Shown here: one piece after another, positions 1 through 27,299 of the stretch
Numbering within the stretch: position 1 is the first letter of the stretch
How the letters are laid out: each line of letters starts with the position of its first letter
NCBI GenBank assembly: GCA_963840935.1
Contig: CAWJAS010000001.1
Location: 256,875-320,874 of the forward strand
DNA length: 64,000 bases
DNA from: Candidatus Magasanikiibacteriota bacterium
GTDB taxonomy: Bacteria; Patescibacteriota; Patescibacteriia; Magasanikbacterales; GWA2-37-8
Direction: 5' to 3'
Position numbers and translations under genes: made by a program
Notes under the pieces: model-generated
Told to the model about the DNA's origin: nothing
The model's database searches: none
Seen by the model: only the letters and a program-made list of their open reading frames with translations

Positions 1-1
1 T

Positions 2-2242: not shown

Positions 2243-2245
2243 TTT

Positions 2246-4120: not shown

Positions 4121-4126
4121 AATATT

Positions 4127-7100
4127 ATGGAAAAATTTGAAAAACAATTTAAAATTCGTGCGAGCATAAAATCAATGATGATTTTTGTGTTTGTATTTGG
4201 AATTTTTGTTGTTTTTGCAAATTCGGCAAGCGCCACAAATTGGAAGCCAAATCCAAATCAATGTCCGACCACATACAACGGTCAAATTGGTAATCCGGGC
4301 GAAGTGATGTGCGGTTTGAACAGTGGAGTGGCGCATTGGTATGACATGACGACTTTAGTTGGTTTGGTACCCGCGGGTAATACAACCGTTAACACTGGTG
4401 GGGGAACATACGGTGGTTATGTGGTTGATTGCGATGCTTTTGATGCGAGCGTTCCGCGTTGCGACAACACGGGTTCTTTTTGGTGCAGTCCGGACGCTAC
4501 TTGCAACAGTGCCTACAGAAAAACAGAATGTATTGGAACAAAATGGGCTACTGATTCCGGATCTTCTAATTGCGATGTTTGTCAAGATAATAGATGGGAT
4601 TGCGACACTAATAATACTTGCGAAACCGCGGATGGGGCCAGTTGCACGGCGACTCTTGGCGGTAATAATGTTCCCGGCACAATGAATTGCGTTACCGGCG
4701 CCGGTTCATGCTCTGATTTGGGAGCTACTCTTGCCACTTGTACTTGCGTACCGGGTGTTCAATATTTTCAAACGGGCATCCAAGCCCAGTTCGCCACAAC
4801 TTCGCCTTTGCTTTGGGGCACTCAATATGGTACCGGTGATTTAATAAATATTTCCAGCAATGATTTATCAACCACCACATTCATGGTTTCTAATTCCGGC
4901 CAAGTGGGTGTCGGTTTGGCTTCTGCAATAAACACCAATGTTGCTTTTGAAGTTTCGTCCACCAATCGAGGCGTGCTTTTGCCAAGATTAACAACCACGC
5001 AGAGAAACGCGATTTTAACTCCACCGGAAAGTTTGCTTGTATATAATATTGACAATCATCAATTTGAATATTATGCCACTTCAAGCTGGCTTGCCATGGG
5101 CTCGGGAGGTGGTTCGTTTACCGAAACCGACCCGATCTGGATGACGGCAAGTGGCACTTTGACTACCGCGCATTTTGCCACCAATACTGTTTCACAATGG
5201 TCTAATGACGCCGGTTATCTTACTTCATACACCACCACTTCACCCGCCGGCATAAATGGGCAAGTGCAATTTAATGATAATGGCGCATTTGGCGCGACTA
5301 ATACTCTTGTTTGGGATAACTTACTCGGTTCCTTGTCTGTGGGTGATAATTATACTTTTCTATCAGGTTCAAGGTCTTTTGTGCAGGGCCTTTATAGTCA
5401 GGCTACCGGCACAAATTCAATTGCCATGGGGCAATACGCGCAAGCAACAAATAATTTTGCCGTAGCTATCGGCGGTTCTTCTCCGGTATCATCCGGTAAT
5501 TCTTCCATTGCTATGGGTTCTGGCGCGCACGCGTATGGTAATAGTTCAATCGCGCTCGGCAATCTTGCATCAGCGGAAAATTTATCTTCCGTCGCCATTG
5601 GTTATCAAACCAGGTCAACCGGTAATTATGCGGTCGCTATCGGTGGAAATACTAGAGCGACCGGTTTGTTCAGCGTGGCGATTGGCAATAACAGTACCTC
5701 AAGCGGAAATTCATCTTTTGTCGGCGGTTATAATAATGATTCAAGCGGTAATTATTCAGCAGTATTTGGTTCTGACAACATTAACACGGGCGGAGATTAC
5801 GCTTTTATATCCGGCGACAATAATGTAAATTCAGGTGGCCTGTATTCCGCGATTTTCGGGGCCTACAACACATCAACCGGCCAATATTCATTTATCGGCG
5901 CCGGTTTAAATAGTGTGGCGAGCGGAATTAATTCAGTTGCTTTTGGTCGAAATTTGACAGTGTCCGGTAATTATTCTTTTGGGGTTAATGCCCACGGTTC
6001 AAATTCATATACCTTATCTCAAGCTAACACAGTTGCTCTTATGGGTGGCAATGTTGGCGTGGGGACTACGACTCCGGCCTATAGGTTAACCGTTTCCGGA
6101 GATTTCGCCGTTACTGGCACAATAAGAGTGGGGAATGCTATGACCCCGGGCACTTATGGCCAACTTCTAATGTCAACCGGCACGGGAGCGGTTTGGATGA
6201 GTACCAGTTCACTTGGTTTGGGCGGGGGAGGCGTCACAGGTTCCGGCACATCAACTGAAGTCGCTTTTTGGTCCGGCACAAATTCACTTTCATCCTCAAG
6301 TTCACTTTATTGGAATAACACGAATGGCAGACTTGGTATTAACAATGCAACTCCGGAATTCGCTTTAACTATTGGAAATGACGGGGGTATTATCGCAACC
6401 GGCACAGTTGGGTCCGGCGCGACTCTTTCTACCGCTGGCGCCGGCACCCGCATGATTTGGTACCCGCGTAAAGCCGCATTCAGAGCCGGTTATGTAAATG
6501 GAACGCAGTGGAATGACGCGAACATCGGAGAATATTCCGTAGCCATGGGGAACGGTTCAAGAGCCAGCGGATATGGTGACATTGCTATTGGTACTGGTGT
6601 AGTCGCAAGCGGTGGAAATTCCGCCACGGCAATAGGCGCTCTTAATACGGCAAGCGGTGATGGGGCGTTTGCCCTTGGCCGTTCAATGACAGTATCCGGC
6701 GACTATTCTTTTGGTGTTAATGTTTCCACAACCGGTGCCACATTATCCCAAGCGAGTACCATTGCTTTAATGGGTGGCAATGTTGGTGTTGGCACAACTT
6801 CTCCATTATTCAAATTAACAATTGACGGTGGAATTTATTCCACGGGTACTTTTAATGCGGGTGAAACTTTGTCTTATTCCGGTGCTGGTACCCGCATGAT
6901 TTGGTACCCACGTAAAGCCGCGTTTAGAGCGGGTAATGTAGATAGCACACAATGGAATGATGCGAATATCGGGACTTATTCCGTTGCTTTTGGAGAAGAC
7001 ACCGAAGCGAGCGGTGACCACGGGTCAACCGCCTTCGGAACCGGTTCAATTGCGAGCGGTGATTATGGGTCCGCCGCTTTTGGCTCGTGGACAGAAGCTT

Positions 7101-10100
7101 CCGGTCAAAGCTCGGCCGCTTTTAACATAGCCACAATTGCCAGTGGTAATTATTCAACCGCTTTTGGCAACACCACTGTGGCCAGTGGCATGACGGCGAC
7201 AGCTTTTGGTAATGGTACGACCGCCAGTGGTTATATTTCCACAGTATTTGGCAATAGCATGACAGTATCCGGTGATTATTCATTTGGCGTAAATGTTGGG
7301 GCTTCAGCTTCCCCTGTGCTCTCGCAAGCAAATACTATTGCTCTTATGGGTGGGAATGTCGGCATTGGTACAACTTCGCCACAATATCGATTGACAGTCG
7401 CTGGTGATTTGGCGGTTACAGGCACAATCAGAGTGGGGGATACTATGGCTTCCGGCACTTACGGCCAGATTTTGATGTCAACCGGCACAGGAGCTACCTG
7501 GATGAGCACCAGTTCACTTGGTTTGGGCGCTGGTACTGTTACAGGTTCCGGCACATCAACCGAAATAGCTTTTTGGTCCGGCACAAATTCACTTTCATCC
7601 TCAAGTTCACTTTATTGGAATAACACAACCGGCAAGTTAGGTATAAATAATTCAAATCCTGAATTCGCTTTAACTATTGGAAACGACGGCGGTATTATCG
7701 CAACAGGAACCTATGGTAGTGGAACTATTCTTACCACAGCAGGCGCCGGCACTCGAATGATTTGGTATCCGTATGGCGCGGCTTTTAGAGCTGGCATAAT
7801 CGACGGTACTCAGTGGAACGAATTTAATATCGGACATGGTTCCGTCGCTTTTGGCGCTAACACTATTGCGAGCGGAGCCGGCTCAATGGCTGTTGGTGCA
7901 GATACAGTAGCTTCAAATGCCTCGTCTTTTGCGTCGGGTTATGGAGCTGTTGCTTCAGGTTACGTTGGTTCTTCTATCGGTTTATATACAACTTCAAGCG
8001 GACATTATGGTTCATTTTCCATAGGCGAACGAACAGTAGCAAGTGGTAATCGCGCTTTTGCTGGTGGGTATTATTCCATAGCTTCAGGCACGGCCACACT
8101 TGCTTTTGGTCAAAACGCGAATGCATTAGGTAACAATTCAGTTGCGCTTGGTCAAAATGTTACCACCACATTGTCTTCAAGTAATAATTTTGCTCTTGGC
8201 AATAATATAATAGTTAGCGGTAATTATTCATTTGGTGTGAATGTTTCGTCAACTGTCGCGACTCTCGCGCAAGCCAACACTATTGCTCTAATGGGTGGTA
8301 ATGTCGGCATCGGCACAACGAGTCCGCCGTTAAAATTAACAATAGACGCGACTGTCGGTAGTGGCGGTTCTGAAGGAATTGGAATTTTTGGCGGTAATAG
8401 CACTACTGTTGCTCTTGGAAATTATAATAGCGGGGGCACATATACCGGAGTTTTGGCATTGTATCGCTCAGATTACTGGGGGCCAACCGCGATGTTTTCT
8501 GCCGGAGGTTCCGCTTCGCTTTATGGTTTTCATATTGGTACTTCCACTATTCCATCTACTATTTCACGTTTTACTGTTGGTTCAGATTTGGAATTTGCAA
8601 TAAGCAGTGACGGGGATATTACAAGAATAAATGACGTGCCCATGTCTTGGCCGTCGTCTCAAGGGGGAGTTGGCACGATTTTACAAAATGACGGTTCGGG
8701 TAATTTGTCTTGGGAGGCGACAAGTTCACTCGGGTTAATTGATGGCGAGGGTTCCGCCGGTTTTGTTACACTTTGGAATAGCAGTACCACTTTGTCTTAT
8801 GATGGTGATGGTATGTATTGGGACGGAATGGATAATCGATTGGGTATTGGGACAACGACTCCCTTGGGGAGACTGCATATGCGTACGAATATAAGTGGAG
8901 ATGGAATTTTTTTAAGTAATGATGTAGGTAAAGTGGCTTCAAAATTGTTTCTTATTTTAGATTCCGACAGCTATCAGTCAGGTAAACTATCTCTATTACA
9001 AAATGACGTGGAAAAAGTGTCTTTAGTTGCAAAAGGCAATTCTTATTTAACCGGCGGTAATGTGGGTATTGGCACATCAACACCGGAAACAGTATTGTCT
9101 GTTGCTGTTCCGGGGAATAATGGCATTGTTTTGTATGGATCCACAAATGGCTATCAATTGGCAGCACTTGCCAGCGGAGCCGGGAATGAAACGGGTGGTC
9201 TTGTGCTTTTTACCAACAATATATCTCAACCGAGTGTTTCCATTACTGGTGGAGTTGGAGGCGCGATTACTTATTTCGGCACTTCAACCTATCGTTTTGG
9301 CATTGCCACAAGTAGTCCTTTATCAGGGTTCACTTTTGTGGTTGCCGGCACTTCATCACAGCGTTCTATTTTACCGGAAACTAATTTGACTTACACATTG
9401 GGTGATTCTTCCAAGCGTTGGAATGAGTTGTGGACCGGCACGGCAAATATTGGTACAAGCACATGGTCGCTTACCACAACCGGCGCGGACCGATTTGGAA
9501 TTTTTAGCGGTCCGAGCGGAACGGCTACGGAAACAATATCGATTTTGCAGGATTTGGGTAATGTTGGTATCAACAACATATCACCATCAAAAACTTTAGA
9601 TGTTAACGGCAGTATTAATATTCCATCAACCGACACTACCACAGATTCAGGAATAATATATATGAATAGTAGCCGTTTTATTCATTCAGTGGGCGGAACA
9701 ACGAATTTTTATGCAGGCTTAGGATCCGCAAATACAAATGCCATTTCAGATTACAATACCGGTATTGGTGGCAATGCATTGATGAATATCACATCTGGCG
9801 ATGGCGCGAATGTTGCAGTTGGTTATAACGCTGGCAGAAGCATTACCACTGGAGCATATAATGTCGGTATTGGTATAAATAATTTTTATGAAAACGGAGG
9901 CGGTATTATTGGAAACGTAGCGATTGGTCGACACACCATGTATTCCACACAAAGTAATTCCAGTACCGCCGTTGGCTACGCTGCGATGAGAAATAACACG
10001 ACCGGTGAAGGTAATGTTGCCCTAGGATATTATGGACTTTATGCCAACTCTACAGGTAATTACAATACAGCCGTTGGTTTCGAAGCTTTGGCTACAACCA

Positions 10101-12919
10101 CAAATTCAAATAATACAGCTTTGGGTTATCAAGCATTATATGGGAGTAGAAGCGGTGCGCGCAATGTTGGTGTTGGTGTCCAATCGTTATATTCTTTGAC
10201 ATCGGGCAGTGACAACACTGCTCTTGGGTATAACGCTTTATATGGAATTACAAGTGGCTCATACAATGTTGGAGTCGGACCTTATTCTCTTTCAAGTATT
10301 TCCGGTACAACTATTACCAATAATACGGCAATAGGACAGCATGTTATGCGCGATGCGGTTGGCACAACCATGTATTATAATGTGGCAATTGGCTATGAAG
10401 CATTAAGATATTTATCAGTTTCCACGGCAACAGATAATGTGGCTATCGGCAGAGGCTCGATGAGTAATGCCTCCGGCACCCCAACAATAAATTACAATAT
10501 TGCTATCGGTCGAGAATCATTATTGAATACGGAAACTAGCGATAGTGTTGCTATTGGTGCATATGCTTTGCGTTATAATACTACAGGTGATGGCAATGTC
10601 GCGATTGGTTATGAAGCTTTGGAATTGAACGACACAGGCTCATATAATACAGCACTTGGTTATCGCGCTTTGGCTACTAATGATATCGCCATTGGTGGTA
10701 GTAATGTGGCTGTGGGTTATTCTGCGCTTGAAGACAGCTCAAACGGAGTGAACAATACTGCCTTGGGGTCAAGTGCGTTGTCAAATTTAACTTCGGGCAG
10801 TTACAATGTAGCCATTGGTAGCCAGTCTGGAAATGATGTGATATTTAGCACCGAGAATGGCAATACATTGATTGGCTACGCGACAGATATTCTTAATGGC
10901 GTCGAATATTCGACAGCTTTAGGCTATAGTGCAGTTGCAAGTACAAGTAATTCAATTTATTTGGGTCAATTAGGTAATGGTAATGGCAGGGTATTTTTTC
11001 CGGGAATATATGGCAGTGTGCCTGCAGCGACAAATTATGTTTGTATAAATCCAACAACCCGAGAAGTTGCCTATCAATCAACTGCCTGTGGTAGCTCCGA
11101 TGATAATTTAAAAATAAATGAAGAGAGTATCGCAGACGAGATTGATGTTTTAAATGCAGTCAAACAATTACGTGGCGTATTTTTTAATTGGGATTTATCT
11201 AATCCGGAAATGATGGGTGCGCCGTCAGATCGGCAGATTGGCGTAATAGCGCAAGAAGTTTTACCAATTTTACCAGAAGTAGTTGAATATAGCGAAGATT
11301 GGGGCTACTATTCGGTTGACTATCCCAAACTCACTGCTTTCCTCATCGAAGTCGCCAAAGCCCAGCAGAATATCCTCGACCCCATCACCGAGTCCATATT
11401 CATTAACACCACCACTCTAAACATGGCCTTTGGCTCATCTTCCACCCCATACAACCTGACCACCTATGGCAATCTGTCCTTCATATTACCTTCAGACTCC
11501 ACCTCAACTCACAAAATATCTTTTTCCAACACCGTTGATTTTGAATCTTCCGTCTCATCCACCCCCGACTCCCGCGCTTTCATCTTTAACGCTCTTAACT
11601 TTGATACCACATCAACCGACAAATACATATTATCTCTCCGTTCCAACAACAATCCGGTCTTTAGCGTCTCATCAAACGGCGATGTTCATTCCTCCGGCAA
11701 CATGTATGCCGCTTCCGCCGTCCTCGGCACATCCACCAACCCGGGTGACCTGGCAGAAAAAGTAGATATAAACCCCACGGAAACCGTGGAAGCAGGGGAT
11801 GTGATGATGGTTGACCCGGCCTCACCCGACAGATACCAAAAATCAAATCAAGCATACGAACCGACTGTGGCCGGCGTTATCTCCACGAACCCAACCATCA
11901 TTGTCGGCAACGGCAAAACCGACCAAACCGCTCCTCTTGCCATGGTTGGAAGGGTACCGGTCAAATTCAGTGAAGAAAACGGCGCAATACAAAGAGGCGA
12001 CCTCCTTGTATCGGCGAGCACTCCTGGCTATGCCATGAAATATGACCCGATTCTCGACAACTCCAGAAAAGTGGTCGGCATTATCGGTATTGCTCTTGAT
12101 AATTCCATGGAATCAACCAATGGTAAGATAATGACCCTTATCAGAACCGGTTGGGTCTACAACAAAACCCAAGCTGTCTCCAATCTTGAACAACAAGTTT
12201 ACTATGTCGCTTCAAGTGCCGGTGTTGACCTATCGGTTGACCCTGAACTCATGAATATTGAAACTACGAGCGAAGGATCTATCACCTACAACAGTGATAG
12301 CAACCTTAGTCTCAACAATTTCTCCATCACCAATGTCAAATCAATAATATCAACCAACAACAAATGGACCATAGATGAATACGGCCTCTTAATCACCAAA
12401 GTCATCACCGCTGAAGGAACTGAAAAGAATATCTACGGCATGACTTCTGAATCGGCGGAGATTACGCTGTCCGGCTCCGCCGAACTCATAAACGGTGAAG
12501 CAATAATTAACTTTGCCACCGATACACAGTGGTTGATTGATGAGACGCAAGAAATAAAAGTTATCCCAGCCTTAACTTCCGGTGATTGCAATGGAATATT
12601 TGTCAGCGAAAAATCATCTGCCGGCTTCACAATAAAGGAATTAAATAGTGGAACAAGTGCATCAACATTTGATTGGCTTGTGATTGCAAAAAGAAAAATA
12701 AATATTCAGGATGAAATAATTTATGAACCCACACCAACTCCGCCTATTGATGATACACCAACTACAACACCTTTGGTTGATTCTCCCACCACCACACCTC
12801 CAATTGATACATCTATCTCAACTCCACCAACAAGTACTCCATCCATAGACCCACCGACAACCACGCCTTCTGTAGAAGCCTCGTCTTCGCCAGATGAAAC
12901 AGCTATGGATGAATCATAA
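4127..12919 (+). CDS. Giant secreted fibre/adhesin-like protein of 2930 aa
   Basis: Uninterrupted 8.8-kb ORF. It contains a signal peptide, a Cys-rich cap, the RGVLLPRLTTTQRNA...EYY module, Hep_Hag/YadA-head-like repeats, large internal repeats carrying GAGTRMIWYPRKAAFRAG, an S74-type chaperone domain, a shared C-terminal module and a Pro/Thr-rich tail. Confidence 0.8.
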   Translation: MEKFEKQFKIRASIKSMMIFVFVFGIFVVFANSASATNWKPNPNQCPTTYNGQIGNPGEVMCGLNSGVAHWYDMTTLVGLVPAGNTTVNTGGGTYGGYVVDCDAFDASVPRCDNTGSFWCSPDATCNSAYRKTECIGTKWATDSGSSNCDVCQDNRWDCDTNNTCETADGASCTATLGGNNVPGTMNCVTGAGSCSDLGATLATCTCVPGVQYFQTGIQAQFATTSPLLWGTQYGTGDLINISSNDLSTTTFMVSNSGQVGVGLASAINTNVAFEVSSTNRGVLLPRLTTTQRNAILTPPESLLVYNIDNHQFEYYATSSWLAMGSGGGSFTETDPIWMTASGTLTTAHFATNTVSQWSNDAGYLTSYTTTSPAGINGQVQFNDNGAFGATNTLVWDNLLGSLSVGDNYTFLSGSRSFVQGLYSQATGTNSIAMGQYAQATNNFAVAIGGSSPVSSGNSSIAMGSGAHAYGNSSIALGNLASAENLSSVAIGYQTRSTGNYAVAIGGNTRATGLFSVAIGNNSTSSGNSSFVGGYNNDSSGNYSAVFGSDNINTGGDYAFISGDNNVNSGGLYSAIFGAYNTSTGQYSFIGAGLNSVASGINSVAFGRNLTVSGNYSFGVNAHGSNSYTLSQANTVALMGGNVGVGTTTPAYRLTVSGDFAVTGTIRVGNAMTPGTYGQLLMSTGTGAVWMSTSSLGLGGGGVTGSGTSTEVAFWSGTNSLSSSSSLYWNNTNGRLGINNATPEFALTIGNDGGIIATGTVGSGATLSTAGAGTRMIWYPRKAAFRAGYVNGTQWNDANIGEYSVAMGNGSRASGYGDIAIGTGVVASGGNSATAIGALNTASGDGAFALGRSMTVSGDYSFGVNVSTTGATLSQASTIALMGGNVGVGTTSPLFKLTIDGGIYSTGTFNAGETLSYSGAGTRMIWYPRKAAFRAGNVDSTQWNDANIGTYSVAFGEDTEASGDHGSTAFGTGSIASGDYGSAAFGSWTEASGQSSAAFNIATIASGNYSTAFGNTTVASGMTATAFGNGTTASGYISTVFGNSMTVSGDYSFGVNVGASASPVLSQANTIALMGGNVGIGTTSPQYRLTVAGDLAVTGTIRVGDTMASGTYGQILMSTGTGATWMSTSSLGLGAGTVTGSGTSTEIAFWSGTNSLSSSSSLYWNNTTGKLGINNSNPEFALTIGNDGGIIATGTYGSGTILTTAGAGTRMIWYPYGAAFRAGIIDGTQWNEFNIGHGSVAFGANTIASGAGSMAVGADTVASNASSFASGYGAVASGYVGSSIGLYTTSSGHYGSFSIGERTVASGNRAFAGGYYSIASGTATLAFGQNANALGNNSVALGQNVTTTLSSSNNFALGNNIIVSGNYSFGVNVSSTVATLAQANTIALMGGNVGIGTTSPPLKLTIDATVGSGGSEGIGIFGGNSTTVALGNYNSGGTYTGVLALYRSDYWGPTAMFSAGGSASLYGFHIGTSTIPSTISRFTVGSDLEFAISSDGDITRINDVPMSWPSSQGGVGTILQNDGSGNLSWEATSSLGLIDGEGSAGFVTLWNSSTTLSYDGDGMYWDGMDNRLGIGTTTPLGRLHMRTNISGDGIFLSNDVGKVASKLFLILDSDSYQSGKLSLLQNDVEKVSLVAKGNSYLTGGNVGIGTSTPETVLSVAVPGNNGIVLYGSTNGYQLAALASGAGNETGGLVLFTNNISQPSVSITGGVGGAITYFGTSTYRFGIATSSPLSGFTFVVAGTSSQRSILPETNLTYTLGDSSKRWNELWTGTANIGTSTWSLTTTGADRFGIFSGPSGTATETISILQDLGNVGINNISPSKTLDVNGSINIPSTDTTTDSGIIYMNSSRFIHSVGGTTNFYAGLGSANTNAISDYNTGIGGNALMNITSGDGANVAVGYNAGRSITTGAYNVGIGINNFYENGGGIIGNVAIGRHTMYSTQSNSSTAVGYAAMRNNTTGEGNVALGYYGLYANSTGNYNTAVGFEALATTTNSNNTALGYQALYGSRSGARNVGVGVQSLYSLTSGSDNTALGYNALYGITSGSYNVGVGPYSLSSISGTTITNNTAIGQHVMRDAVGTTMYYNVAIGYEALRYLSVSTATDNVAIGRGSMSNASGTPTINYNIAIGRESLLNTETSDSVAIGAYALRYNTTGDGNVAIGYEALELNDTGSYNTALGYRALATNDIAIGGSNVAVGYSALEDSSNGVNNTALGSSALSNLTSGSYNVAIGSQSGNDVIFSTENGNTLIGYATDILNGVEYSTALGYSAVASTSNSIYLGQLGNGNGRVFFPGIYGSVPAATNYVCINPTTREVAYQSTACGSSDDNLKINEESIADEIDVLNAVKQLRGVFFNWDLSNPEMMGAPSDRQIGVIAQEVLPILPEVVEYSEDWGYYSVDYPKLTAFLIEVAKAQQNILDPITESIFINTTTLNMAFGSSSTPYNLTTYGNLSFILPSDSTSTHKISFSNTVDFESSVSSTPDSRAFIFNALNFDTTSTDKYILSLRSNNNPVFSVSSNGDVHSSGNMYAASAVLGTSTNPGDLAEKVDINPTETVEAGDVMMVDPASPDRYQKSNQAYEPTVAGVISTNPTIIVGNGKTDQTAPLAMVGRVPVKFSEENGAIQRGDLLVSASTPGYAMKYDPILDNSRKVVGIIGIALDNSMESTNGKIMTLIRTGWVYNKTQAVSNLEQQVYYVASSAGVDLSVDPELMNIETTSEGSITYNSDSNLSLNNFSITNVKSIISTNNKWTIDEYGLLITKVITAEGTEKNIYGMTSESAEITLSGSAELINGEAIINFATDTQWLIDETQEIKVIPALTSGDCNGIFVSEKSSAGFTIKELNSGTSASTFDWLVIAKRKINIQDEIIYEPTPTPPIDDTPTTTPLVDSPTTTPPIDTSISTPPTSTPSIDPPTTTPSVEASSSPDETAMDES
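5400..5975 (+). other. Hep_Hag / YadA-head-like repeat region inside giant gene 1
   Basis: Repeated ..SIAMG..A.A.G..SVAIG..S.A.G.. units (e.g. NSSIALGNLASAENLSSVAIGYQTRSTGNYAVAIGGNTRATGLFSVAIG). Confidence 0.55.
5965..6555 (+). repeat. Copy 1 of a ~590-bp internal segmental repeat of giant gene 1
   Basis: The peptide YSFGVN...ALMGGNVGVGTT...GDFAVTGTIRVG...GAGTRMIWYPRKAAFRAG recurs at 7272-7860 with high identity. A shorter version lies at about 6700-6990. Confidence 0.6.
7272..7860 (+). repeat. Copy 2 of the ~590-bp internal segmental repeat of giant gene 1
   Basis: See copy 1. The peptide here is YSFGVNVGASASPVLSQANTIALMGGNVGIGTTSPQYRLTVAGDLAVTGTIRVG...GAGTRMIWYPYGAAFRAG. Confidence 0.6.
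11093..11380 (+). other. S74-type intramolecular-chaperone autoproteolysis domain, internal to giant gene 1
   Basis: The peptide SSDDNLKINEESIADEIDVLNAVKQLRGVFFNWDL...RQIGVIAQEVLPILPEVV...YYSVDYPKLTAFLIEVAKAQQ matches the SD(K/N)RLK...GLIAQEV..V.PE.V...Y..L..L.EA.K signature of the tail-spike/endosialidase C-terminal chaperone domain (Peptidase_S74). Confidence 0.6.
11546..12475 (+). repeat. About 930-bp block nearly identical to 25875-26795 in giant gene 2
   Basis: Direct nucleotide comparison shows only scattered mismatches across this block, whereas the flanking regions of the two genes are divergent. Confidence 0.75.
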
Positions 12920-12995
12920 TTGGTTTTGAAGAATATAAAAAACGCTTTTTTCGGCGTTTTTTGTTATATATTAGCCAAATTATTTGGGCATACTC

Positions 12996-13024
12996 TTGAC
13001 AAAAATCTAAAAATATGCTATATT
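12996..13024 (+). promoter_or_regulatory. Sigma70-like promoter (TTGACA-17-TATATT) upstream of the 13122 gene
   Basis: Consensus -35 hexamer, 17-nt spacer and a near-consensus -10. A strong SD (AAAGGAGG) lies 7 nt before the ATG. Confidence 0.55.
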
Positions 13025-13121: not shown

Positions 13122-13637
13122 ATGTCGTTCAAGTCGATTGTTTTCTGTGTGGTGTTCACGCTCGCCATTCTTGGATGCCAGTCGAGCGCCAACTTTGAGG
13201 CGGGAGACGGAGATGATGGTTTCGAGTCGTACGTCTTCAACGCCCTGTACTTCGATATCGAGAATTCGCTGGTTTGGGAACTGGTTCCGTCGCACGAAAG
13301 CAGTTACAGCACTGCCATTTGGGCGGAAGCAGAGAAACACTGCGAGGATCTTCGGGTCGTAGGGGAGGAGGGCATTTACGAAGATTGGCGCCTTCCCACC
13401 ATCGATGAACTGCGCACACTCGTGGTCGGTTGCGACGAACCTTCGTGTCTGATCGAGGCTGGTACCGGTCCGAACGGCTGCTATTGGCCGGATGCTTTTT
13501 CCGGCGTTTGTGCCCGTTATTGGTCGTTGAGTCGGTGCGGTGAAGATAGCCGGTCGGCAGTCACATTTTCTTTTGCCAGAACGGATTGTTGGCCAGAAGA
13601 TCAGCCGGCAATCGTCCGCTGCGTCCGCGACCTCTAA
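13122..13637 (+). CDS. Short lipoprotein (171 aa) with a DUF1566/Lcl-C-terminal-like (C-type-lectin-like) domain
   Basis: Signal peptide with a lipobox (LAILGCQS). Motifs WRLPTIDELRTL, GCYWP and YWS are present, and the protein ends RCVRDL. The gene is GC-rich relative to its flanks. Confidence 0.75.
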   Translation: MSFKSIVFCVVFTLAILGCQSSANFEAGDGDDGFESYVFNALYFDIENSLVWELVPSHESSYSTAIWAEAEKHCEDLRVVGEEGIYEDWRLPTIDELRTLVVGCDEPSCLIEAGTGPNGCYWPDAFSGVCARYWSLSRCGEDSRSAVTFSFARTDCWPEDQPAIVRCVRDL

Positions 13638-13681
13638 CCATCCCGCCTCACACCCCGCTCTTTCCGCTCTTTCAACTCCCG

Positions 13682-13711
13682 CCCGCCGATATTCCATCGG
13701 CGGGTTTTTTT
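13682..13711 (+). terminator. Rho-independent terminator (cccgccgat-attcc-atcggcggg + T7)
   Basis: Perfect 9-bp stem followed by a T-run. The identical element recurs at 15405-15428. Confidence 0.7.
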
Positions 13712-13929
13712 ATCGTTAACTATTGACTTAATTCGCTAAAAATGGTATTTTAATATATTAAAAAATTCGTATTTTTATTATTCTAAGCGAAGTAAAAAAT
13801 ATAATTTTTTTTCTGCGCCTAGAATGATAATGATAGCTCGTTGAAAATATTAAAAAAACCGACACAATACTGTGCGTCCCCAAGAGGCGTTCGTGGGGGA
13901 TAAAGCATTCCCGAAAAAAGGAGTAGTTC

Positions 13930-15354: not shown

Positions 15355-15404
15355 CCAATCCCGCCCCACCCCCGCTCTTTCCGCTCTTTCAACTCCCGCC
15401 CGCC

Positions 15405-15428
15405 GATATTCCATCGGCGGGTTTTTTT
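15405..15428 (+). terminator. Rho-independent terminator, a duplicate of the 13682 element
   Basis: The same hairpin and T-run. About 110 bp of the 3' end plus UTR is near-identical between the two genes. Confidence 0.7.
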
Positions 15429-15553
15429 ATCCCTAAAAAGCATCTTAATAAATTGTAATCAAATTGTGGATAACTTATAAATAATATCGAAAATAACACA
15501 AAAATGTGATATAATAATAATGTAAAAAACAAGCCGGCCAATAAAAAGGCAAC

Positions 15554-21200: not shown

Positions 21201-24200
21201 ACTGGAACGTTCAGAGTGGGGAATTCTCAAGATGCCGGTGCTTCAGGATATATTTTGCGATCAAATGGTTCATCGGTCGCCCCGACTTGGGTGGCCACAT
21301 CTTCGCTTGGCTTAATGAGTACTGCTCTTGCTTCCGCATACATTTGGGTAGGCAATGCTTCCGGCGTAGCAACTGCTGTTTCTATGAGCAGTGACGCTAC
21401 GATATCCAACACAGGTGCTCTAACTATTTCAGCCAATGCGGTTGGGTCAAATGAAATAATTAACAATTCAATTGCGCCGGTTGACATGGCTTCAAGTAGC
21501 GCCCCATCAGCAGTTGGAAATGTTTTAACCTATAACGGAAGTAACTTTAAATGGATTGCCACATCTTCTCTGGGAATCGCCTCTGCCGGTGGTTGGACTG
21601 ATGATGGTACGGTGGTCAGATTAACCGCAATTACAGATAGTGTCGGCATCGGCACAACCACTCCGCCATTTAAATTGGCGGTTCAAGCAGGATATAATGA
21701 TGGAATTACTTTATATAGCCCAACAGCGGTTGGGACTATTGGGATGGTTAGTATTCTTGGTGGTGGCGGTGGTCCGGCCGGAGTTTTGTTAGCAATGGAT
21801 ACTGGAGTAATAAAAACTCGTATTAGCGCCGACGCCAGCACGGATTCATATTTTGATGCTGGTGATGTCGGTATAGGTACAACTACCCCATCAAACAAAT
21901 TGCAGGTAAATGTCACTAGCAATAATGATGGCATATTATTGAGTGGCAATAGCACACTTGCTGCAAAATTATATTATGATGGTTCGAGTGGCCATATCGG
22001 ATATATGTCTTTATATGGCGGTGGAGCGGAAACCGTTAAATTATCAGCATCTGGCTATTCATATATAAATGGCGGTAATGTCGGCATCGGCACAACCACT
22101 CCGCCATTTAAATTGGCGGTTCAAGCAGGATATAATGATGGAATTACTTTATATAGCCCAACAGCGGTTGGGACTATTGGGATGGTTAGTATTCTTGGTG
22201 GTGGCGGTGGTCCGGCCGGAGTTTTGTTAGCAATGGATACTGGAGTAACAAAAATTAGAATAAGCGCTGACGCTAGTACTGATTCATATTTTAACGCTGG
22301 TGATGTCGGCATCGGCACAACAACCCCCGCCGGAAAACTGCATGTATTATCATCCGCAAGCGACGGCATATTATTAAGCGGAACAGATGATAACAAAATT
22401 GCGGCTAAACTTCATCACACTTACATGAGCGGAGCAACCGCGGGTTTGTTGTCCATGTACGATAATACAGTCCAAAAAATATATTTGAATGCCGGCGGTA
22501 TTTCGTATTTGAACGGAGGCAATGTGGGTATTGGCACTACTTCTCCTGCCTATAAATTAACTGTTGCCGGCGATTTACACGTTACAGGTACTTTAAGAGT
22601 AGGAAATAATTTTGATGCAGGTATTACCGGATACCTGTTGATGTCAAATGGCTCTTCTCTTGCACCTAGCTGGACATCAACAGCAACTTTATTTTCCTCT
22701 GCCGGTGGTTGGACTGACGATGGTACTATAGTAAGGTTGACTACATTGGGTGATAAAGTTGGAATTAATACATACAGCGCTTTTGCGCCCCTCCATGTTG
22801 GAGATACATCAAATGATGGCACTATTGTCGCAAAAGGATTACTAGGTTCTGGATACTCATTAAATTTAGATCAAGATCAACCATATTTTGTATGGAGTTC
22901 CAAGCGAGCAGCGTTAAGAGCTGGTATATCAGGGTCATCTTTAGCTTGGGATGATGCCTATGTTGGAAATTATTCTGTTGCCATGGGTTATTATTCGGCG
23001 GCAACAGGCACAGCATCAGTTGCAATCGGTGGAGCTAATATTGCCACAGCAGATTATGCAACAGCGCTTGGTTACAATATGACTGTTTCCGGCGCGCGTT
23101 CATTCGGTGTAAATGTTTCAACTACAGCCGCCACCCTCTCGCAGGCTGATACTATCGCCTTGATGGGTGGCAATGTTGGGGTTGGTAAAGTTAACCCAGA
23201 AAGAAAGCTCGATGTTAGCGGAGTGGCGCGAATTCAAAATTTTGCTTCTTTGAGCAATGTACAATATGATGCAGTCAATATTAATTATACGATGTTGGGC
23301 AACAACATCTACATGAATGAATATTCCGGTGTTCCTTATTTTGCTTATTTAAATACTGACAGCGGTGGAGCGACAGGTTATTCCGGTATGTTATTGGCTT
23401 CCGCTGGTTTTAATTTTTACGCCGATGTTTCTTCAACTGTTAAAGATGGTGTTTTGAGTGACCCAAATAAATTAATGGATTTATTATATGATGGGCAACT
23501 TATTTCATATGGCACTTATAGCGTAGGCGATTCTTTAACTGCGTCAGGCGCCGGCACCCGTATGATTTGGTTCCCAAAAAAATCCGCTTTTAGAGCGGGC
23601 ACAGCAGAAGGCACAGAATATAACGACGCGAATATTGGCAATTATTCATTTGCAGGAGGTTCTGGTAATCTTGCAAGCGGTGAATCTGCTACTGCCTTTG
23701 GAAGCAGAAATACTGCAAGTGGACAGTGGTCTTTTATCGCTGGCTCGCAAAATACCGCGTCTAATACGGCGTCCATCGCTTTGGGTCGCTCAAATAATGC
23801 CACTGGAATTTATTCTTTTACCGCTGGTTATGGTAACACTGCAAGCGGAATTTATTCCGTGGCTATTGGTAGAAGTTCAGTTGCGAGCGAAGAACACACT
23901 ACGGCTTTGGGCTATAATGCAACAGCAAGCGGTGAATATGCGACTGCTTTGGGTTATCAGAGTACCGCAAGTTTTTATGGTGCTTCTGCGTTTGGTTTTA
24001 GAAGTGTTGCTAGTAGCTTTTACTCTCTGGCTTTAGGTAACACTGTAACGTCAAGCGGATCAAACGCCGTTGCTATGGGTAGCTTTATTACTGTTTCTGG
24101 TTCTAGCTCGCTTGGTATTAATGTGTCTTCTACTGTGCCCGCAACACTTTCTCAAAATCACACTATCGCCTTAATGGGTGGGAATGTCGGTGTTGGCACA

Positions 24201-27200
24201 GTGACACCAAGTGAACAGTTGGCTGTTTGGGGTGATATGCGTGTCGCGACTACCACAGGAACTGCGCCCGCATTATATGTTGACGTATCGGCCAATGCGA
24301 TTGGTGTTCGAATGATAGCGCCACAAGAAGCTTTGCATGTTGAAGGCAATATTAGAATTCCTGGAACAGGTGCTTCAGACGGATATATTAAAATGGATGC
24401 TAATCGATATATCCATAGTTATGGGGGCACAACAAACTTTTTTGCCGGTGTTAATGCCGGTGGGCTGTCAATGACCGGTGATTACAACACAGGTGTTGGA
24501 GCTAGTTCATTAAATAATATTACATCCGGTCAAAACAATGTAGCTTTGGGTTACTACGCCTCACGAGATTTGCAAACCGGTTCAGATAATGTTGCGGTTG
24601 GAGTAAATGCGCTTTTTAATGCTACGGGTTATAGTGCCAATGTCGCCGTTGGTAAAGATGCTATGGCGGAAACTACTGCGAATTCAAGCACCGCAGTTGG
24701 TTATGAGGCGCTCAGTCGTAATACCAGTGGCGAAGGCTTGGTCGCGGTTGGTTATCAAGCTCTTACAACCAATTCCACAGGTAATTACAATTCGGCTCTT
24801 GGTTATCAAGCGCTTTATTCCAATACAACCGGTTTATATAACACGGCCTTTGGCTCTCAAACTCTTTATGATAATGTTAGCGCCCATGCCAATACCGCTT
24901 TGGGTTGGGGTGCGCTGGCGAACACAACGAACGCATCAAATACTGCGGTTGGTTTTGGAGCTTTAATTACTGATACAACTGGTTATAGTAATACTGCCGT
25001 GGGTTTGTACGCTCTAAGATATGTTTCTTCGGGCAGTTATAACGTTGCTATTGGGCTTGATGCGGGCGATAATTCTGTTTTTAATACCGAAAGTTATAAT
25101 ACTTTGATTGGAGCAAGAGCGGATGTTTCTGCTGATGCCATATCAAATTCAACCGCAATTGGCTATGACGCTGTGGTTGGTTCTAGCAACAGGGTCGTTC
25201 TTGGAAATGGCGATGTTACTTCTGTTTATATGTCCGATGATGGTGGAGCAAGTGTCTACTTCACGCCGGCTAGCACTCTTTATACTACTGCGTTATGTTG
25301 GGATAATTCCGGCCCGTCGAGTATATATGATTGTAACGGTTCGGCGACCGACTACATGGAATACTACGCGGTTGACAACGATGTTGAATCCGGGGATTTG
25401 GTTGTAATCGGAGATACTTATGTTTCAACAACCGAAGGTTTTACAATAGCAAAATTAGAAAAAGCGACAGGCCCATACGACCCGAAATTATTAGGTGTTA
25501 TTTCAATAAAAGAATGGGCTGGCGATTTCAATTCAATCGGTCAAAATAGTATTTACGAATCAGACAATCCGCACGTGCTTGCTCTTTCAGGTCGTATTCC
25601 CGTAAAGGTTACCACAGATAATGGTCCTATTTATAAAGGCGACAAGCTTACTTCATCTGATCGCCCTGGTTATGCCATGAAAGCCACCGAAGACGGTCCG
25701 ACTATTGGTATTGCTTTGGCAGATTTTACAGGTTCGGCCACAGGAACGGTTATGGTATTTATTGATCTTGGGTGGAATAATACAATTTATCGCGGATTAA
25801 CAATAAATGAAAGCGACTCGGAAATAACATTCAAAACACCAACTTTGGCTTTCACAACCACCACATATTTTACCTCTTCCGTCTCATCCACCCCCGACTC
25901 CCGCGCTTTCATCTTTAACGCTCTTAACTTTGATACCACATCAACCGACAAATACATATTATCTCTCCGTTCTAACAACAACCCGGTCTTCTCTGTCTCA
26001 TCAAACGGCGATGTTCATTCCTCCGGCAACATGTACGCCGCTTCGGCTGTCCTCGGTACTTCCACCAACCCGGGTGACTTGGCAGAAAAGGTAGACATAA
26101 ACCCCTCGGAAACCGTGGAAGCAGGGGATGTGATGATGGTTGACCCGGCATCACCCGACAGATACCAAAAATCAAATCAAGCATACGAACCGACTGTGGC
26201 CGGCGTTATCTCCACGAACCCAACCATCATTGTCGGCAACGGCAAAACCGACCAAACCGCTCCTCTTGCCATGGTCGGCAGGGTACCGGTCAAATTCAGT
26301 GAAGAAAATGGCGCAATACAAAGAGGTGACCTCCTTGTTTCCGCGAGTACCCCGGGCTATGCCATGAAATATGACCCGATTCTCGACAACTCCAGAAAAG
26401 TGGTCGGCATCATCGGTATTGCTCTTGATAATTCCATGGAATCAACCAATGGCAAAGTAATGACTCTCATCAGAACCGGTTGGGTCTACAACAAAACCCA
26501 AGCCGTCTCCAACCTTGAACAACAAGTTTACTATGTTGCTTCAAGCGCCGGTGTTGACCTATCGGTTGACCCTGAACTCATGAATATTGAAACTACTAGT
26601 GAAGGCTCTATCACCTACAACAGCGATAGCAACCTTAGTCTCAACAATTTCTCCATCACCAATGTCAAATCAATAATATCAACCAACAATAAATGGACCA
26701 TAGACGAGAACGGCATATTAATTTCTAAAATCATTACCGCTGAAGGCGCTGAAAAGAATATCTATGGCATGACTTCAGAATCTGCAGAGATTACGCTATC
26801 GGGAACCGGAACTTTGCAAATGGGTGAAATATTTATTTCTTTTGCGACCGATACAAAATCAATTATTGATGAATTAGAACCGATTAAAGTGAGTGTCACC
26901 TTAACTTCCATAGACGCAAAAGGAATCGCGGTTATAGAAAAATCCAATGAAGGATTTAAAGTTAAGGAATTGGATAATGGGACATCAAACGCCACATTTG
27001 ATTGGATTGTGATTGCCAAACGGCGTGCAATAATTAACGAATCAAGCAGTGAACCTGAAACTATTGATACTAAATCATCATCCGGTTCGCCGGTTGATGA
27101 GAGTTCTGTTGATGAGGAATTAACTCAAGCAGGAGAGGAAGACGAAACGACGGACTCGTCTTCTTCTCCTGCCGGTGATTCTTTCGAGGAACCGTTGGCT

Positions 27201-27299
27201 GAAGAACCGCCTGCAGACGAAGAACCATCTCTGGAAGAAACTCTGCCAGCCCCTGAACCTTCGGCAGAAGAGTCAACCCCTGAAGAATTTACCCCATAA
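18237..27299 (+). CDS. Main segment (3020 aa) of giant fibre/adhesin-like gene 2
   Basis: Contains Hep_Hag-like repeats, phage-fibre motifs (GVTAGTYGTVSAVPILVVDTYGRITSAS...ILPIARGGTN), perfect tandem repeats, GAGTRMIWFPKKSAFRAG, the C-terminal module shared with gene 1 and an acidic Pro/Glu-rich tail. Confidence 0.75.
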   Translation: MSNVIAGQHSGVVAGTYNIVTSSNSFIGGGSNNQITNSASRSFIGGGQYNFADGLNSFIGGYANTTTGNNATAFGYQMQVDGNYSFGINVSSTNPATITNNNTIALMGGNVGVGTTTPETKLTIDSTVGAGLFGGISLSGGGAPTAILGHANIVSNHSGVLALYNNTPAELLPPVFIPAWTKSAILHGLNIGTTSYSGTGLLNVGLTQQFRVDNDGDIARIKNISYDWPDSQGAVGTILQNNGAGALYWTATSSLGFVDTDTTTSPAGFDGYIQFNEDGEFAASQNLYWATSTGRLGVGDASIAGSPTNKLSIGATPSSGSADGMSIYGDDLLTAFVGNYNSSGVYTGRIGLYRAEDADTELKTFISASASYFVGGNVGIGVSTTIPSLLTVGSNSGFQVNSSGNLTKINNVTYSWPGSQGAASTILQNDGSGTLTWVNTSTLGFATSSHTHATLSQGTGIAAFSYNGSSAATVGLATSGVTAGTYGTVSAVPILVVDTYGRITSASTSSIAISASQITSGILPIARGGTNSSTIGAAGSVPYSDATSYRFTAVGTSGQILRSNGAGAPTWVSTSTLGITVTETDPVFDALPAAKGDIFTATANDTPSILSVGTNGKILTASSSATNGIDWMTTSSLIGTLGTMAYQNANNVNISGGTITSIGDVTINEGQLYVHDNLYITDGDSDTVSGIYLGATEVGQYFITSAGTAGQLWSSDGDGRGTWVATSSLGIASAGGWTDDGMVVRLTTIIDNVGIGTTTPAAKLHVNITTGDGIILGSGSSGSAVAKLFANGDYGDVGNISLHYGSSQKALLSADGVSYLNGGNVGIGTTSPAAKLHVNITTGDGIILGSGSSGSAVAKLFANGDYGDVGNISLHYGSSQKALLSADGVSYLNGGNVGIGTTSPAAKLHVNITTGDGIILGSGSSGSAVAKLFANGDYGDVGNISLHYGSSQKALLSADGVSYLNGGNVGIGTTSPSYSLSVAGHMAVTGTFRVGNSQDAGASGYILRSNGSSVAPTWVATSSLGLMSTALASAYIWVGNASGVATAVSMSSDATISNTGALTISANAVGSNEIINNSIAPVDMASSSAPSAVGNVLTYNGSNFKWIATSSLGIASAGGWTDDGTVVRLTAITDSVGIGTTTPPFKLAVQAGYNDGITLYSPTAVGTIGMVSILGGGGGPAGVLLAMDTGVIKTRISADASTDSYFDAGDVGIGTTTPSNKLQVNVTSNNDGILLSGNSTLAAKLYYDGSSGHIGYMSLYGGGAETVKLSASGYSYINGGNVGIGTTTPPFKLAVQAGYNDGITLYSPTAVGTIGMVSILGGGGGPAGVLLAMDTGVTKIRISADASTDSYFNAGDVGIGTTTPAGKLHVLSSASDGILLSGTDDNKIAAKLHHTYMSGATAGLLSMYDNTVQKIYLNAGGISYLNGGNVGIGTTSPAYKLTVAGDLHVTGTLRVGNNFDAGITGYLLMSNGSSLAPSWTSTATLFSSAGGWTDDGTIVRLTTLGDKVGINTYSAFAPLHVGDTSNDGTIVAKGLLGSGYSLNLDQDQPYFVWSSKRAALRAGISGSSLAWDDAYVGNYSVAMGYYSAATGTASVAIGGANIATADYATALGYNMTVSGARSFGVNVSTTAATLSQADTIALMGGNVGVGKVNPERKLDVSGVARIQNFASLSNVQYDAVNINYTMLGNNIYMNEYSGVPYFAYLNTDSGGATGYSGMLLASAGFNFYADVSSTVKDGVLSDPNKLMDLLYDGQLISYGTYSVGDSLTASGAGTRMIWFPKKSAFRAGTAEGTEYNDANIGNYSFAGGSGNLASGESATAFGSRNTASGQWSFIAGSQNTASNTASIALGRSNNATGIYSFTAGYGNTASGIYSVAIGRSSVASEEHTTALGYNATASGEYATALGYQSTASFYGASAFGFRSVASSFYSLALGNTVTSSGSNAVAMGSFITVSGSSSLGINVSSTVPATLSQNHTIALMGGNVGVGTVTPSEQLAVWGDMRVATTTGTAPALYVDVSANAIGVRMIAPQEALHVEGNIRIPGTGASDGYIKMDANRYIHSYGGTTNFFAGVNAGGLSMTGDYNTGVGASSLNNITSGQNNVALGYYASRDLQTGSDNVAVGVNALFNATGYSANVAVGKDAMAETTANSSTAVGYEALSRNTSGEGLVAVGYQALTTNSTGNYNSALGYQALYSNTTGLYNTAFGSQTLYDNVSAHANTALGWGALANTTNASNTAVGFGALITDTTGYSNTAVGLYALRYVSSGSYNVAIGLDAGDNSVFNTESYNTLIGARADVSADAISNSTAIGYDAVVGSSNRVVLGNGDVTSVYMSDDGGASVYFTPASTLYTTALCWDNSGPSSIYDCNGSATDYMEYYAVDNDVESGDLVVIGDTYVSTTEGFTIAKLEKATGPYDPKLLGVISIKEWAGDFNSIGQNSIYESDNPHVLALSGRIPVKVTTDNGPIYKGDKLTSSDRPGYAMKATEDGPTIGIALADFTGSATGTVMVFIDLGWNNTIYRGLTINESDSEITFKTPTLAFTTTTYFTSSVSSTPDSRAFIFNALNFDTTSTDKYILSLRSNNNPVFSVSSNGDVHSSGNMYAASAVLGTSTNPGDLAEKVDINPSETVEAGDVMMVDPASPDRYQKSNQAYEPTVAGVISTNPTIIVGNGKTDQTAPLAMVGRVPVKFSEENGAIQRGDLLVSASTPGYAMKYDPILDNSRKVVGIIGIALDNSMESTNGKVMTLIRTGWVYNKTQAVSNLEQQVYYVASSAGVDLSVDPELMNIETTSEGSITYNSDSNLSLNNFSITNVKSIISTNNKWTIDENGILISKIITAEGAEKNIYGMTSESAEITLSGTGTLQMGEIFISFATDTKSIIDELEPIKVSVTLTSIDAKGIAVIEKSNEGFKVKELDNGTSNATFDWIVIAKRRAIINESSSEPETIDTKSSSGSPVDESSVDEELTQAGEEDETTDSSSSPAGDSFEEPLAEEPPADEEPSLEETLPAPEPSAEESTPEEFTP
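20513..21169 (+). repeat. Perfect tandem repeat, 3 x 219 bp (73-aa unit), inside giant gene 2
   Basis: Three nucleotide-identical copies were seen. Each encodes AAKLHVNITTGDGIILGSGSSGSAVAKLFANGDYGDVGNISLHYGSSQKALLSADGVSYLNGGNVGIGTTSP. Confidence 0.8.
21643..22255 (+). repeat. Two ~438-bp tandem units with long identical stretches inside giant gene 2
   Basis: GIGTTTPPFKLAVQAGYNDGITLYSPTAVGTIGMVSILGGGGGPAGVLLAMDTGV... is repeated starting at 21643 and 22081. Confidence 0.65.
25875..26795 (+). repeat. About 930-bp block nearly identical to 11546-12475 in giant gene 1
   Basis: See the partner entry. A more diverged tandem copy of the same protein module lies just upstream, at about 25380-25800 (GDLVVIGDTYVS...GRIPVKVTTDNGPIYKGDKLTSSDRPGYAMKA...VMVFIDLGWNN). 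Confidence 0.75.

Follow-up and report, generated by a model that had tools for sequence, protein, structure and literature searches.

An island of about 29 kb on the chromosome of a Magasanikbacteria-like patescibacterium (contig CAWJAS010000001.1), lying between the genes infB and leuS, contains ten open reading frames (ORFs), labelled here A to J, all on the forward strand (Table 1). It was analysed within a 64,000-nt stretch of that contig, called the window, to which all coordinates refer. The reading judged probable, with moderate confidence, is that the island codes for a repertoire of chimeric surface fibres, exported by Sec and most likely homotrimeric, together with four lectin-domain lipoproteins, and that it represents a giant monoderm variant of the MAT-type fibres of host or prey recognition. 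The repertoire would consist of a short fibre (A), a medium fibre (B), a giant fibre (C) and a broken giant (F-G-H). Judging by their similarities, the fibre modules appear homologous to obligately trimeric families, namely the YadA head, S74, the gp12 autochaperone, tail-spike repeats and PTL_trimer. An earlier note on this DNA had described two giant ORFs and their neighbours, assigned to the interval 4127-27299, as mosaics of phage tail-fibre and trimeric-adhesin-like modules; two of the genes it discussed lie upstream of that interval, at 1205 and 2246. The organism itself is tiny and probably host-dependent.

Table 1. Features of the infB-leuS island (positions in the 64,000-nt window)
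Feature	Position (nt)	Strand	Description
infB	5-733		3' end
A	1205-2242	+	345 aa; short fibre: signal peptide, N-module, disordered linker, Cys-rich tip
A, N-module	1334-1702	+	aa 44-166; MAT_N-like beta-sandwich
A, tip	1892-2239	+	aa 230-345; C-type-lectin-like, Cys-rich
B	2246-4120	+	624 aa; medium fibre: signal peptide, cap, collar, motif, tip
B, cap	~2333-2935	+	Cys-rich
B, collar	~2936-3280	+	PTL_trimer 'collar' with RGVLFTRLTTVQR
B, motif	3416-3472	+	GTYG..VD.YGR
B, tip	~3743-4117	+	lectin-like, same as A
C	4127-12919	+	2930 aa; giant fibre, uninterrupted 8.8-kb ORF
C, N-terminal region	4235-5461	+	Cys-rich cap aa 37-210; PTL_trimer-type collar aa 211-330; connector aa 330-445
C, YadA-head arrays	5384-8326	+	left-handed beta-roll; Pfam YadA_head (PF05658) E 2.6e-33, 8 stretches
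C, tail-spike/tail-fibre-like repeats	9809-11026	+	NTA.G..AL units; PHROG 4636 tail spike E 8e-44
C, Peptidase_S74	11096-11284	+	aa 2324-2386; Pfam PF13884 E 7.6e-9, 36.2 bits (cutoff 22)
C, beta-tulip	11744-12166	+	phi29 gp12 C-terminal autochaperone fold; starts at conserved PGDLAE
C, beta-sandwich and tail	12344-12916	+	terminal sandwich aa ~2740-2860; Pro/Thr-rich low-complexity tail
Terminator-like hairpin	12935-12964		3' of C
D	13122-13637	+	lipoprotein, C-terminal Lcl_C (DUF1566, lectin-like), Pfam E 1e-13
E	13930-15354	+	lipoprotein, C-terminal Lcl_C, Pfam E 4.9e-15
F+G+H	15554-27299	+	one former frame, ~3,900 codons, ~11.7 kb; three-frame translation
F	15554-17434	+	626 aa
F, N-module	15632-16009	+	MAT_N-like
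G	17677-18240	+	187 aa
H	18237-27299	+	3020 aa
H, phage-fibre-type motifs	19686-19826	+	GTYGTVSAVPILVVDTYGR and ILPIARGGT; motif level only
H, tandem repeat	20490-21164	+	216-nt (72-aa) unit, 3.1 copies, 98% identity
H, spaced repeats	21638-22346	+	91% identical, 438-nt spacing
H, head array and repeats	23595-25181	+	YadA-head array (aa 1787-2008), then tail-spike-like repeats (aa 2100-2315)
H, two beta-tulips	25347-26501	+	gp12-type; aa ~2371-2520, aa ~2613-2755
I	27509-28153	+	paralog of D; Pfam Lcl_C match
J	28377-29849	+	paralog of E; Pfam Lcl_C match
leuS	30018-32585		

The shaft of C is composed of heads and connectors (aa ~420-1400), a region without family assignment, and tail-spike-like repeats (aa ~1895-2300). 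Between its head arrays lie GAGTRMIWYP..AAFRAG and ..NTIALMGGNVGIGTT.. connector units, and the two together make up large imperfect repeats of about 1.3 kb (DNA repeat families D2, D4 and D6); among PDB sequences the arrays matched YadA (1p9h), CbpF (9u93) and BpaC (7o23). In H, the corresponding array reached E 3.7e-17 with Pfam YadA_head and matched BpaC (2.7e-10), the Hep_Hag structure 3s6l and UspA1 among PDB sequences, while PHROG 4636 was detected at E 3.4e-23. The Hep_Hag/YadA-head arrays described in the earlier note are thus borne out by significant matches to YadA_head (the family formerly named Hep_Hag) in both giants. All the motifs it quoted were recovered by regular expressions: GAGTRM(I/M)W(Y/F)P...AFRAG is present three times in C and once each in F and H, and the RGVL(L/F)(P/T)RLTT.QR module has a single occurrence in B (aa 300) and another in C (aa 281). 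The resemblance to phage fibre repeats fared less evenly. The motifs GTYG...VD.YGR (B aa 391, H aa 484) and ILPIARGGT (H aa 522) are present; Pfam Phage_fiber_2 was absent from B at E<=1 and from H at E<=0.01, so this resemblance stands at the level of motifs. Another short motif, the connector GGNVG(I/V)G(T)T.P...L, recurs at 15 sites within 4127-27299, for example at aa 640, 883, 1075, 1390 and 1643 of C and between aa 108 and 1981 of H. It resembles the 'capping loop' consensus of MAT and S74 beta-helices, V-G-G/N-pi-x-x-P-x-x-x-L (PMC10769870), with spacing off by one residue, and is kept as a lead only.

The tail-spike-like region of C also matched PHROGs 23837 and 6002 (virion structural). 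In tblastn searches, tail fibre or tailspike genes of Roseobacter, Pelagibacter and Bacillus SPO1-type phages were 29-36% identical to it across 74-95% of the query, none above 60%. Directly downstream stands the Peptidase_S74 domain, found by the Pfam scan that the earlier note had suggested. The match spans profile positions 1-57 of 58, and S2324-D-D-N-L-K2329 is an intact fit to the SDxxxK Ser/Lys motif as defined for this domain (PMC10769870); a phmmer search of the region against PDB returned only noise (MyRF, E 1.1). The domain is internal, with 544 aa downstream of it. The same placement before the C-terminus is found in four relatives (P0052, P0053, P0204 and P0254), and in giants that carry the N-module described below, the residues after S74 number 257 (P0254) and 558 (P0204). 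H gave no Peptidase_S74 match in Pfam.

After S74, C continues with a beta-tulip module, an order also found in P0052 and P0053. The C-terminal domain of phi29 gp12, whose fold this module shares, is a cleaved autochaperone (PMC3357383). Pfam PF11962 (Peptidase_G2) did not match the beta-tulip copies of the window and was detected in a single homolog (P0056; E 1.6e-4, 21.6 bits, cutoff 25); a weak Pfam match to XM1_gp53_minor_capsid was also recorded for the module. Of the two copies in H, the first is divergent, directly adjoins the tail-spike repeats and is 32% identical to its counterpart in C (blastp E 4e-17), and the second is the version common to C. A profile of the post-S74 module found no match among PDB sequences. 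The terminal beta-sandwich of C is possibly lectin-like, and no LPXTG motif, transmembrane segment or anchor was found at the C end.

The phage-like parts of these proteins invite the explanation that they are tail-fibre or tailspike genes of a prophage, a tailocin or another phage-derived particle located between infB and leuS. The PHROG tail spike and virion structural matches, the S74 and gp12-type chaperone domains and the identity to annotated phage tail fibres all speak for it. However, no capsid, portal, terminase, tail tube, sheath, baseplate or integrase genes were found across the 64-kb window, the remainder of which is ordinary chromosome (ComEC, NusA, YidC, GroEL, UvrA/B/C, adenylate cyclase and others). 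Moreover, every fibre gene opens with a Sec signal peptide, which virion proteins lack; the locus is syntenic in several related genomes; and the post-S74 module had no relative in an IMG/VR scan. The GC content at third codon positions (GC3) is 0.36-0.42 in the fibre genes versus 0.30-0.45 in housekeeping genes, an agreement which marks the fibre genes as native and not recently imported; their higher overall GC comes from second codon positions, that is, from richness in Gly, Ala, Ser and Thr. This explanation is therefore largely refuted and retains very little probability: the island is chromosomal and not a prophage. Taken together, phage identities of 29-36%, native GC3, synteny at infB and leuS and the lack of phage genes in the window point to ancient shared ancestry of modules and not to recent acquisition. 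The earlier suggestion that the fibres may have been acquired from phages is accordingly a weak one.

Genes A, B and C are taken to form one operon, since the gaps between them measure 3 nt (A-B) and 6 nt (B-C) and a terminator-like hairpin follows C. The proteins A, B, C and F, as well as their homologs, have predicted signal peptides with AXA-type sites. In A, the structure predicted by AlphaFold2 from a 50-sequence alignment (this and all other structure models are monomers) consists of a hydrophobic leader helix, a beta-sandwich at aa 51-150 (pLDDT >90), a linker that is disordered and, at the C-terminus, another confidently modelled domain; a Foldseek search with this model against PDB gave no match at E<=1e-3. 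The beta-sandwich corresponds to the N-module shared with F. Against the NCBIfam profile NF053851 (Bdello_MAT_N), whose cutoff is 60 bits, the N-modules of both A (E 3.7e-3, 17 bits) and F (E 7.3e-5, 23 bits) scored below cutoff, with matches spanning profile positions 3-79 of 162. The profile also matched 28 of 50 homologs (best 6.8e-8), every one under the curated cutoff. The similarity of the N-domain to MAT, although sub-threshold, thus appears real from its sequence. In a library of 1.84 billion, a profile of the N-module itself detected 45,766 representative proteins when the limit was set to E<=1e-3, and 9,307 with the stricter limit of E<=1e-10. Among the best 150 matches, it lies at about residues 40-165, directly after the leader, in almost all, in proteins of 186 to 4,591 aa. 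These numbers and the constant position after the leader define a very large family of fibres of variable length.

The C-terminal domain of A and B has a C-type-lectin/Link/endostatin-like fold. Tips of this type are fused in other Patescibacteria to collagen, LVIVD, YadA-head or PTL_trimer parts. They were additionally observed, at 39-46% identity, on contigs L044, L045 and L046, binned as DPANN archaea (Woesearchaeota, Nanoarchaeia and Nanobdellota), which suggests either that ultrasmall episymbionts of the two domains have exchanged the tip or that the binning is in error; the genome-contig scan behind these loci used a 23-sequence alignment dominated by lectin-tip patterns and has little bearing on the N-module. 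In place of an N-module, B and C begin with a Cys-rich cap, with 22 Cys at aa 38-227 of B and 16 at aa 46-207 of C, and a collar. The assignment of this collar to PTL_trimer (PF26696) rests on precomputed ortholog annotation, since the Pfam copy used did not include that family: the match is recorded on P0001, which is 94% identical to B, and on the C-like neighbours in L001 and L002. No paper mentioning PF26696 was found in the literature, and a profile of the cap and collar found no match among PDB sequences. In searches of Pfam, PHROGs and NCBIfam, A, F and G gave almost no matches and B gave none.

The second giant survives in pieces. The earlier note had treated H as a giant ORF of its own, but H is the 3' part of a frame running through F, G and H. 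In three-frame translation, repeat units continue over both the F/G and the G/H boundaries, and H has no signal peptide, its start falling in the middle of a repeat; the three ORFs are therefore regarded as one former reading frame. F carries the signal peptide and the N-module of this frame. Three lesions separate the pieces: an in-frame TAA at 17432-17434 that ends F, a 1-nt deletion near 17497 compatible with an A-run, and the loss of a further 1 nt, assignable to the G5 run 18205-18209, where restoring one G yields ...NEIRDGGKPSSFIGGGMSNVIAG..., a normal repeat unit. They may reflect real decay, phase-off states or sequence errors.

These breaks raise the question of whether faulty assembly or sequencing of a metagenomic region rich in repeats has produced the giant ORFs themselves or, at any rate, their disruptions. 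All three lesions fall within 800 nt, two of them at short homopolymers, and near-identical repeats are liable to mis-assembly. In the same window, uvrB (45651-47726) is split into 45651-46967 and 47229-47726, and its helicase-C segment is readable only with three frame changes within about 300 nt, one of them at A-runs. The split is due either to local sequence error or to gene decay; it suggests a poor local consensus and gives more weight to local sequence error at F-G-H as well. On the other hand, C is intact over 8.8 kb, its first 1.8 kb are colinear with the independent contig L003 at 82% identity, and independent assemblies commonly contain proteins of 2,000-4,600 aa that share the N-module. 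An artefact would also account for the breaks and not for the architecture, and as an explanation of the giants it is considered quite improbable.

The modules are swapped among the genes, and the proteins are, as far as their sequences can be compared, mosaics of them. The sharing reported in the earlier note was recovered by alignment, well above chance: the N-termini of A and F are 32% identical (E 1e-8), B (2-486) and C (10-470), whose aligned parts include the cap and collar, are 37% identical (blastp, E 3e-80, 503-aa alignment), and the connector with DP(I/V)W.TASG and HFATNTVSQW, which in C reads DPIW..HFATNTVSQW, is 58% identical over 116 aa between C (330-445) and F (247-356; blastp, E 5e-33). 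The Cys-rich C-termini of A and B, whose sharing had not been noticed before, are 50% identical (E 2e-50). C and H are 34% identical over about 2,900 residues, and a patch of about 900 nt (C 11540-12430, H 25870-26760) reaches about 94% DNA identity between flanks of 40-65%; so sharply bounded a patch is a signature of recent gene conversion. Colinearity with L003 stops where the repeat region of C starts.

The site between infB and leuS holds a smaller version of the island in other genomes. Nearly all homologs of A, B and the C-terminal module derive from metagenome bins of Patescibacteria, including Magasanikbacteria, Moranbacteria, Falkowbacteria, Peribacteria and Parcubacteria. The smaller version was found at the same site in five loci (L001, L002, L003, L005 and L006, the last on a 906-kb Magasanikbacteria contig), with L003 showing 82-87% DNA identity to positions 1-5895 of the window. 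In the related loci, infB is followed by a small gene for a thioredoxin (annotated as such in L001 and L003), then by an A-like gene and by a B-like gene of 600-1,200 aa. Where the contig extends, a third gene of 630-1,480 aa follows, carrying PTL_trimer and S74 in L001 and L002 and known by ORF length alone in L005 and L006. In L001 and L002, the only loci with an annotated far flank, leuS lies 3' of the cassette. Compared with these relatives, the cassette of the window is enlarged: C is twice as long, and a second unit has joined the first.

The closest known system in design is the MAT fibres of Bdellovibrio bacteriovorus, which combine a signal peptide, a beta-rich N-domain of about 130 aa, a trimeric shaft and an S74 or non-S74 tip (Caulton et al. 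2024, PMC10769870). Both A and F-G-H conform to this layout, with the signal peptide directly before a beta-rich N-domain of about 120-130 aa whose similarity in hidden Markov model searches is weak and recurrent. The phage-tail-fibre-like shaft, the interchangeable tips (S74 in C, non-S74 elsewhere), the A/B tip's C-type-lectin fold, which is also that of Bdellovibrio Bd2740, the several paralogs per genome with swapped modules, and the probable reliance of the organism on contact with other bacteria are further points of likeness. The differences are also considerable. Bdellovibrio is a diderm predator, whereas the host of these genes is a monoderm patescibacterium; the fibres of the window reach 2,930 to about 3,900 aa, up to four times longer than the roughly 1,000 aa of MAT fibres; they contain long YadA-head arrays; B and C begin with a Cys-rich cap and PTL_trimer; in C, a beta-tulip and a beta-sandwich come after an internal S74; and the N-domain scores stay under the family cutoff.

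The head arrays also recall the trimeric autotransporter adhesins (YadA, BpaC, UspA1, AtaA and CbpF), in which beta-roll heads likewise alternate with connectors in very long fibres, and the proteins could be regarded as classical members of that class, secreted by type Vc. The AtaA fibre is described as ~260 nm long (PMC13082670), and rough scaling from it would put the fibres of the window at some 100-250 nm. Strong YadA_head arrays, head matches to YadA, BpaC, UspA1 and CbpF, and weak NCBIfam matches to YadA and Ata favour such a view. Nevertheless, the NCBIfam matches score 24-31 bits where the cutoffs lie at 750-2500, and no YadA_anchor or beta-barrel domain was found in Pfam or NCBIfam, so the fibres are not autotransporters. 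Their C-termini are Pro/Thr-rich or acidic low-complexity tails, their assembly domains are of the phage type, and their polarity is probably reversed, with the N-terminus proximal. Patescibacteria are not known to have an outer membrane, into which a barrel would need to be inserted, and this too was counted against membership. Membership is thus refuted, with next to no probability left to it, and of the earlier description as trimeric-adhesin-like, the YadA heads remain and the autotransporter does not.

Other relatives share single modules. Phage receptor-binding proteins (RBPs) with S74, such as the K1F endosialidase and the L-shaped fibre pb1 of T5, have tail-spike-like repeats directly 5' of an S74 with SDxxxK; unlike them, C is encoded on a cellular chromosome, has a signal peptide and a non-terminal S74, and is at most 36% identical to phage proteins. 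The phi29 pre-neck appendage gp12 (PDB 3GQH; Pfam Peptidase_G2) shares the beta-tulip fold of its C-terminal fragment, with marginal sequence similarity, but in C the fold stands in tandem with S74 and further domains follow. The ICA domain of MyRF offers an S74-type domain in mid-protein, whose self-cleavage would part a trimeric N-terminal portion from a substantial C-terminal one; MyRF, however, is a eukaryotic membrane-bound transcription factor, and homology is confined to the S74/ICA domain. No paper that connects Patescibacteria with fibres of the MAT or S74 type was found, and the S74 and gp12-like tandem was not found described in the literature searched. The outcome of the profile searches, with matches to YadA_head, S74, PHROG 4636 and PDB heads, supports the family resemblances that the earlier note had read from the letters.

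On the reading as MAT-type surface fibres, the products would be exported by Sec through cleavable AXA-type signal peptides. Phage-type C-terminal intramolecular chaperones (S74 and the gp12-like beta-tulip in C, two beta-tulips in F-G-H) may then nucleate trimers and register the beta-roll/beta-helix shaft, as their homology to endoNF, T5 pb1 and phi29 gp12 suggests. S74 would probably cleave itself at S2324 (SDDNLK), as its motif predicts, so that a C-terminal piece of 607 residues is shed. By analogy with Bdellovibrio MAT (PMC10769870), the N-terminal module, either the MAT_N-like beta-sandwich of A and F-G-H or the Cys-rich cap and PTL_trimer collar of B and C, would retain the fibre at the cell surface. 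The YadA heads, tail-spike-like repeats and C-type-lectin-like tips would bind glycans or proteins on the host-cell surface, and the repertoire diversifies through tandem duplication, module swapping and gene conversion, as the sequence itself shows. Surface or secreted fibres might also serve mainly in something other than host recognition, such as tailspike-like depolymerisation of polysaccharides, scaffolding of an envelope or matrix, or acting as a phage decoy; this is held to be rather unlikely. Toxin delivery was considered and rejected, as no toxin domain is present.

Several points weigh against host-recognition fibres of the MAT type. The trimeric state, the cleavage, the surface location and the ligand are all inferred, and F-G-H is disrupted in the present sequence. 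The Bdello_MAT_N matches remain under 60 bits and do not reach beyond the profile's first half, and B and C do not have the N-module of A and F. No cell-wall anchoring motif was found at either end of the fibres, which leaves the retention end ambiguous. The 544 residues after S74 are atypical, and if cleavage does take place, shedding so large a piece has no explanation. Finally, experiments on how Patescibacteria attach to their hosts have to date pointed mainly to type IV pili (PMC11665869).

The four lipoproteins have a lipobox-like Cys after the signal peptide in D and E. E and J are 50% identical, D and I 32%. A layout of giant fibre, small Lcl_C lipoprotein and large Lcl_C lipoprotein occurs twice, as C-D-E and as FGH-I-J, and the paralogy of D with I and of E with J indicates that the island is a diverged duplication of this three-gene unit. 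The lipoproteins may provide additional short-range lectins, connected to the fibres by position alone. All four also contain Asp/Ser-rich linkers and TSP3-like repeats. The GC3 of D, E and J (0.48-0.62) is above that of the remaining window, and they may have arrived later than the fibre genes. Downstream of I and J, an 83-nt terminator repeat (28184-28266 and 29879-29961) is 100% identical; downstream of D and E, a 118-nt terminator region (13615-13732 and 15332-15449) is 86% identical, with the same 10-bp GC stem. These duplicated regions indicate recent homogenisation of intergenic sequence in the island.

Additional observations concern the flanks. The gene leuS contains three in-frame copies of a palindromic element of about 84 nt (30725-30808, 31169-31252 and 32048-32131), the second and third being 87% and 62% identical to the first, and each encodes a peptide like 'IARSEA(P/T)KQS.GIASS....VPR(N/D)DK'. 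These insertions resemble the Rickettsia palindromic elements, which enter essential genes in frame. Outside the island, two further large secreted-looking products are encoded, one of 925 aa without a Pfam match (58221-60998) and one of 613 aa with MBG_2 and peptidoglycan-binding domains (43108-44949).

Apart from type IV pili and unnamed adhesins, little is known of the means by which ultrasmall episymbionts select their hosts and stay attached to them (PMC11665869, PMC10633639). The island offers concrete candidates for host-recognition proteins, namely modular fibres with exchangeable lectin-like and adhesin-head modules, at a site that is conserved and yet hypervariable. In design, and distantly in sequence, these fibres are akin to those with which Bdellovibrio recognises its prey; cellular proteins as long as about 3,900 residues here combine two kinds of phage-type chaperone, S74 and gp12-like, and the N-terminal module belongs to a very large and mostly unannotated protein family. 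As a tentative generalisation, which we regard as possible and less secure than the reading of the island itself, Patescibacteria, and perhaps the DPANN archaea with the lectin-like tip, may recognise and hold their hosts through a very large and rapidly recombining family of phage-RBP-like trimeric fibres of the MAT_N type, with infB-leuS as a host-range locus and two phage-type self-cleaving chaperones in tandem. If this is true, MAT-type fibres would be a general device of bacteria living on bacteria, extending beyond Bdellovibrio.

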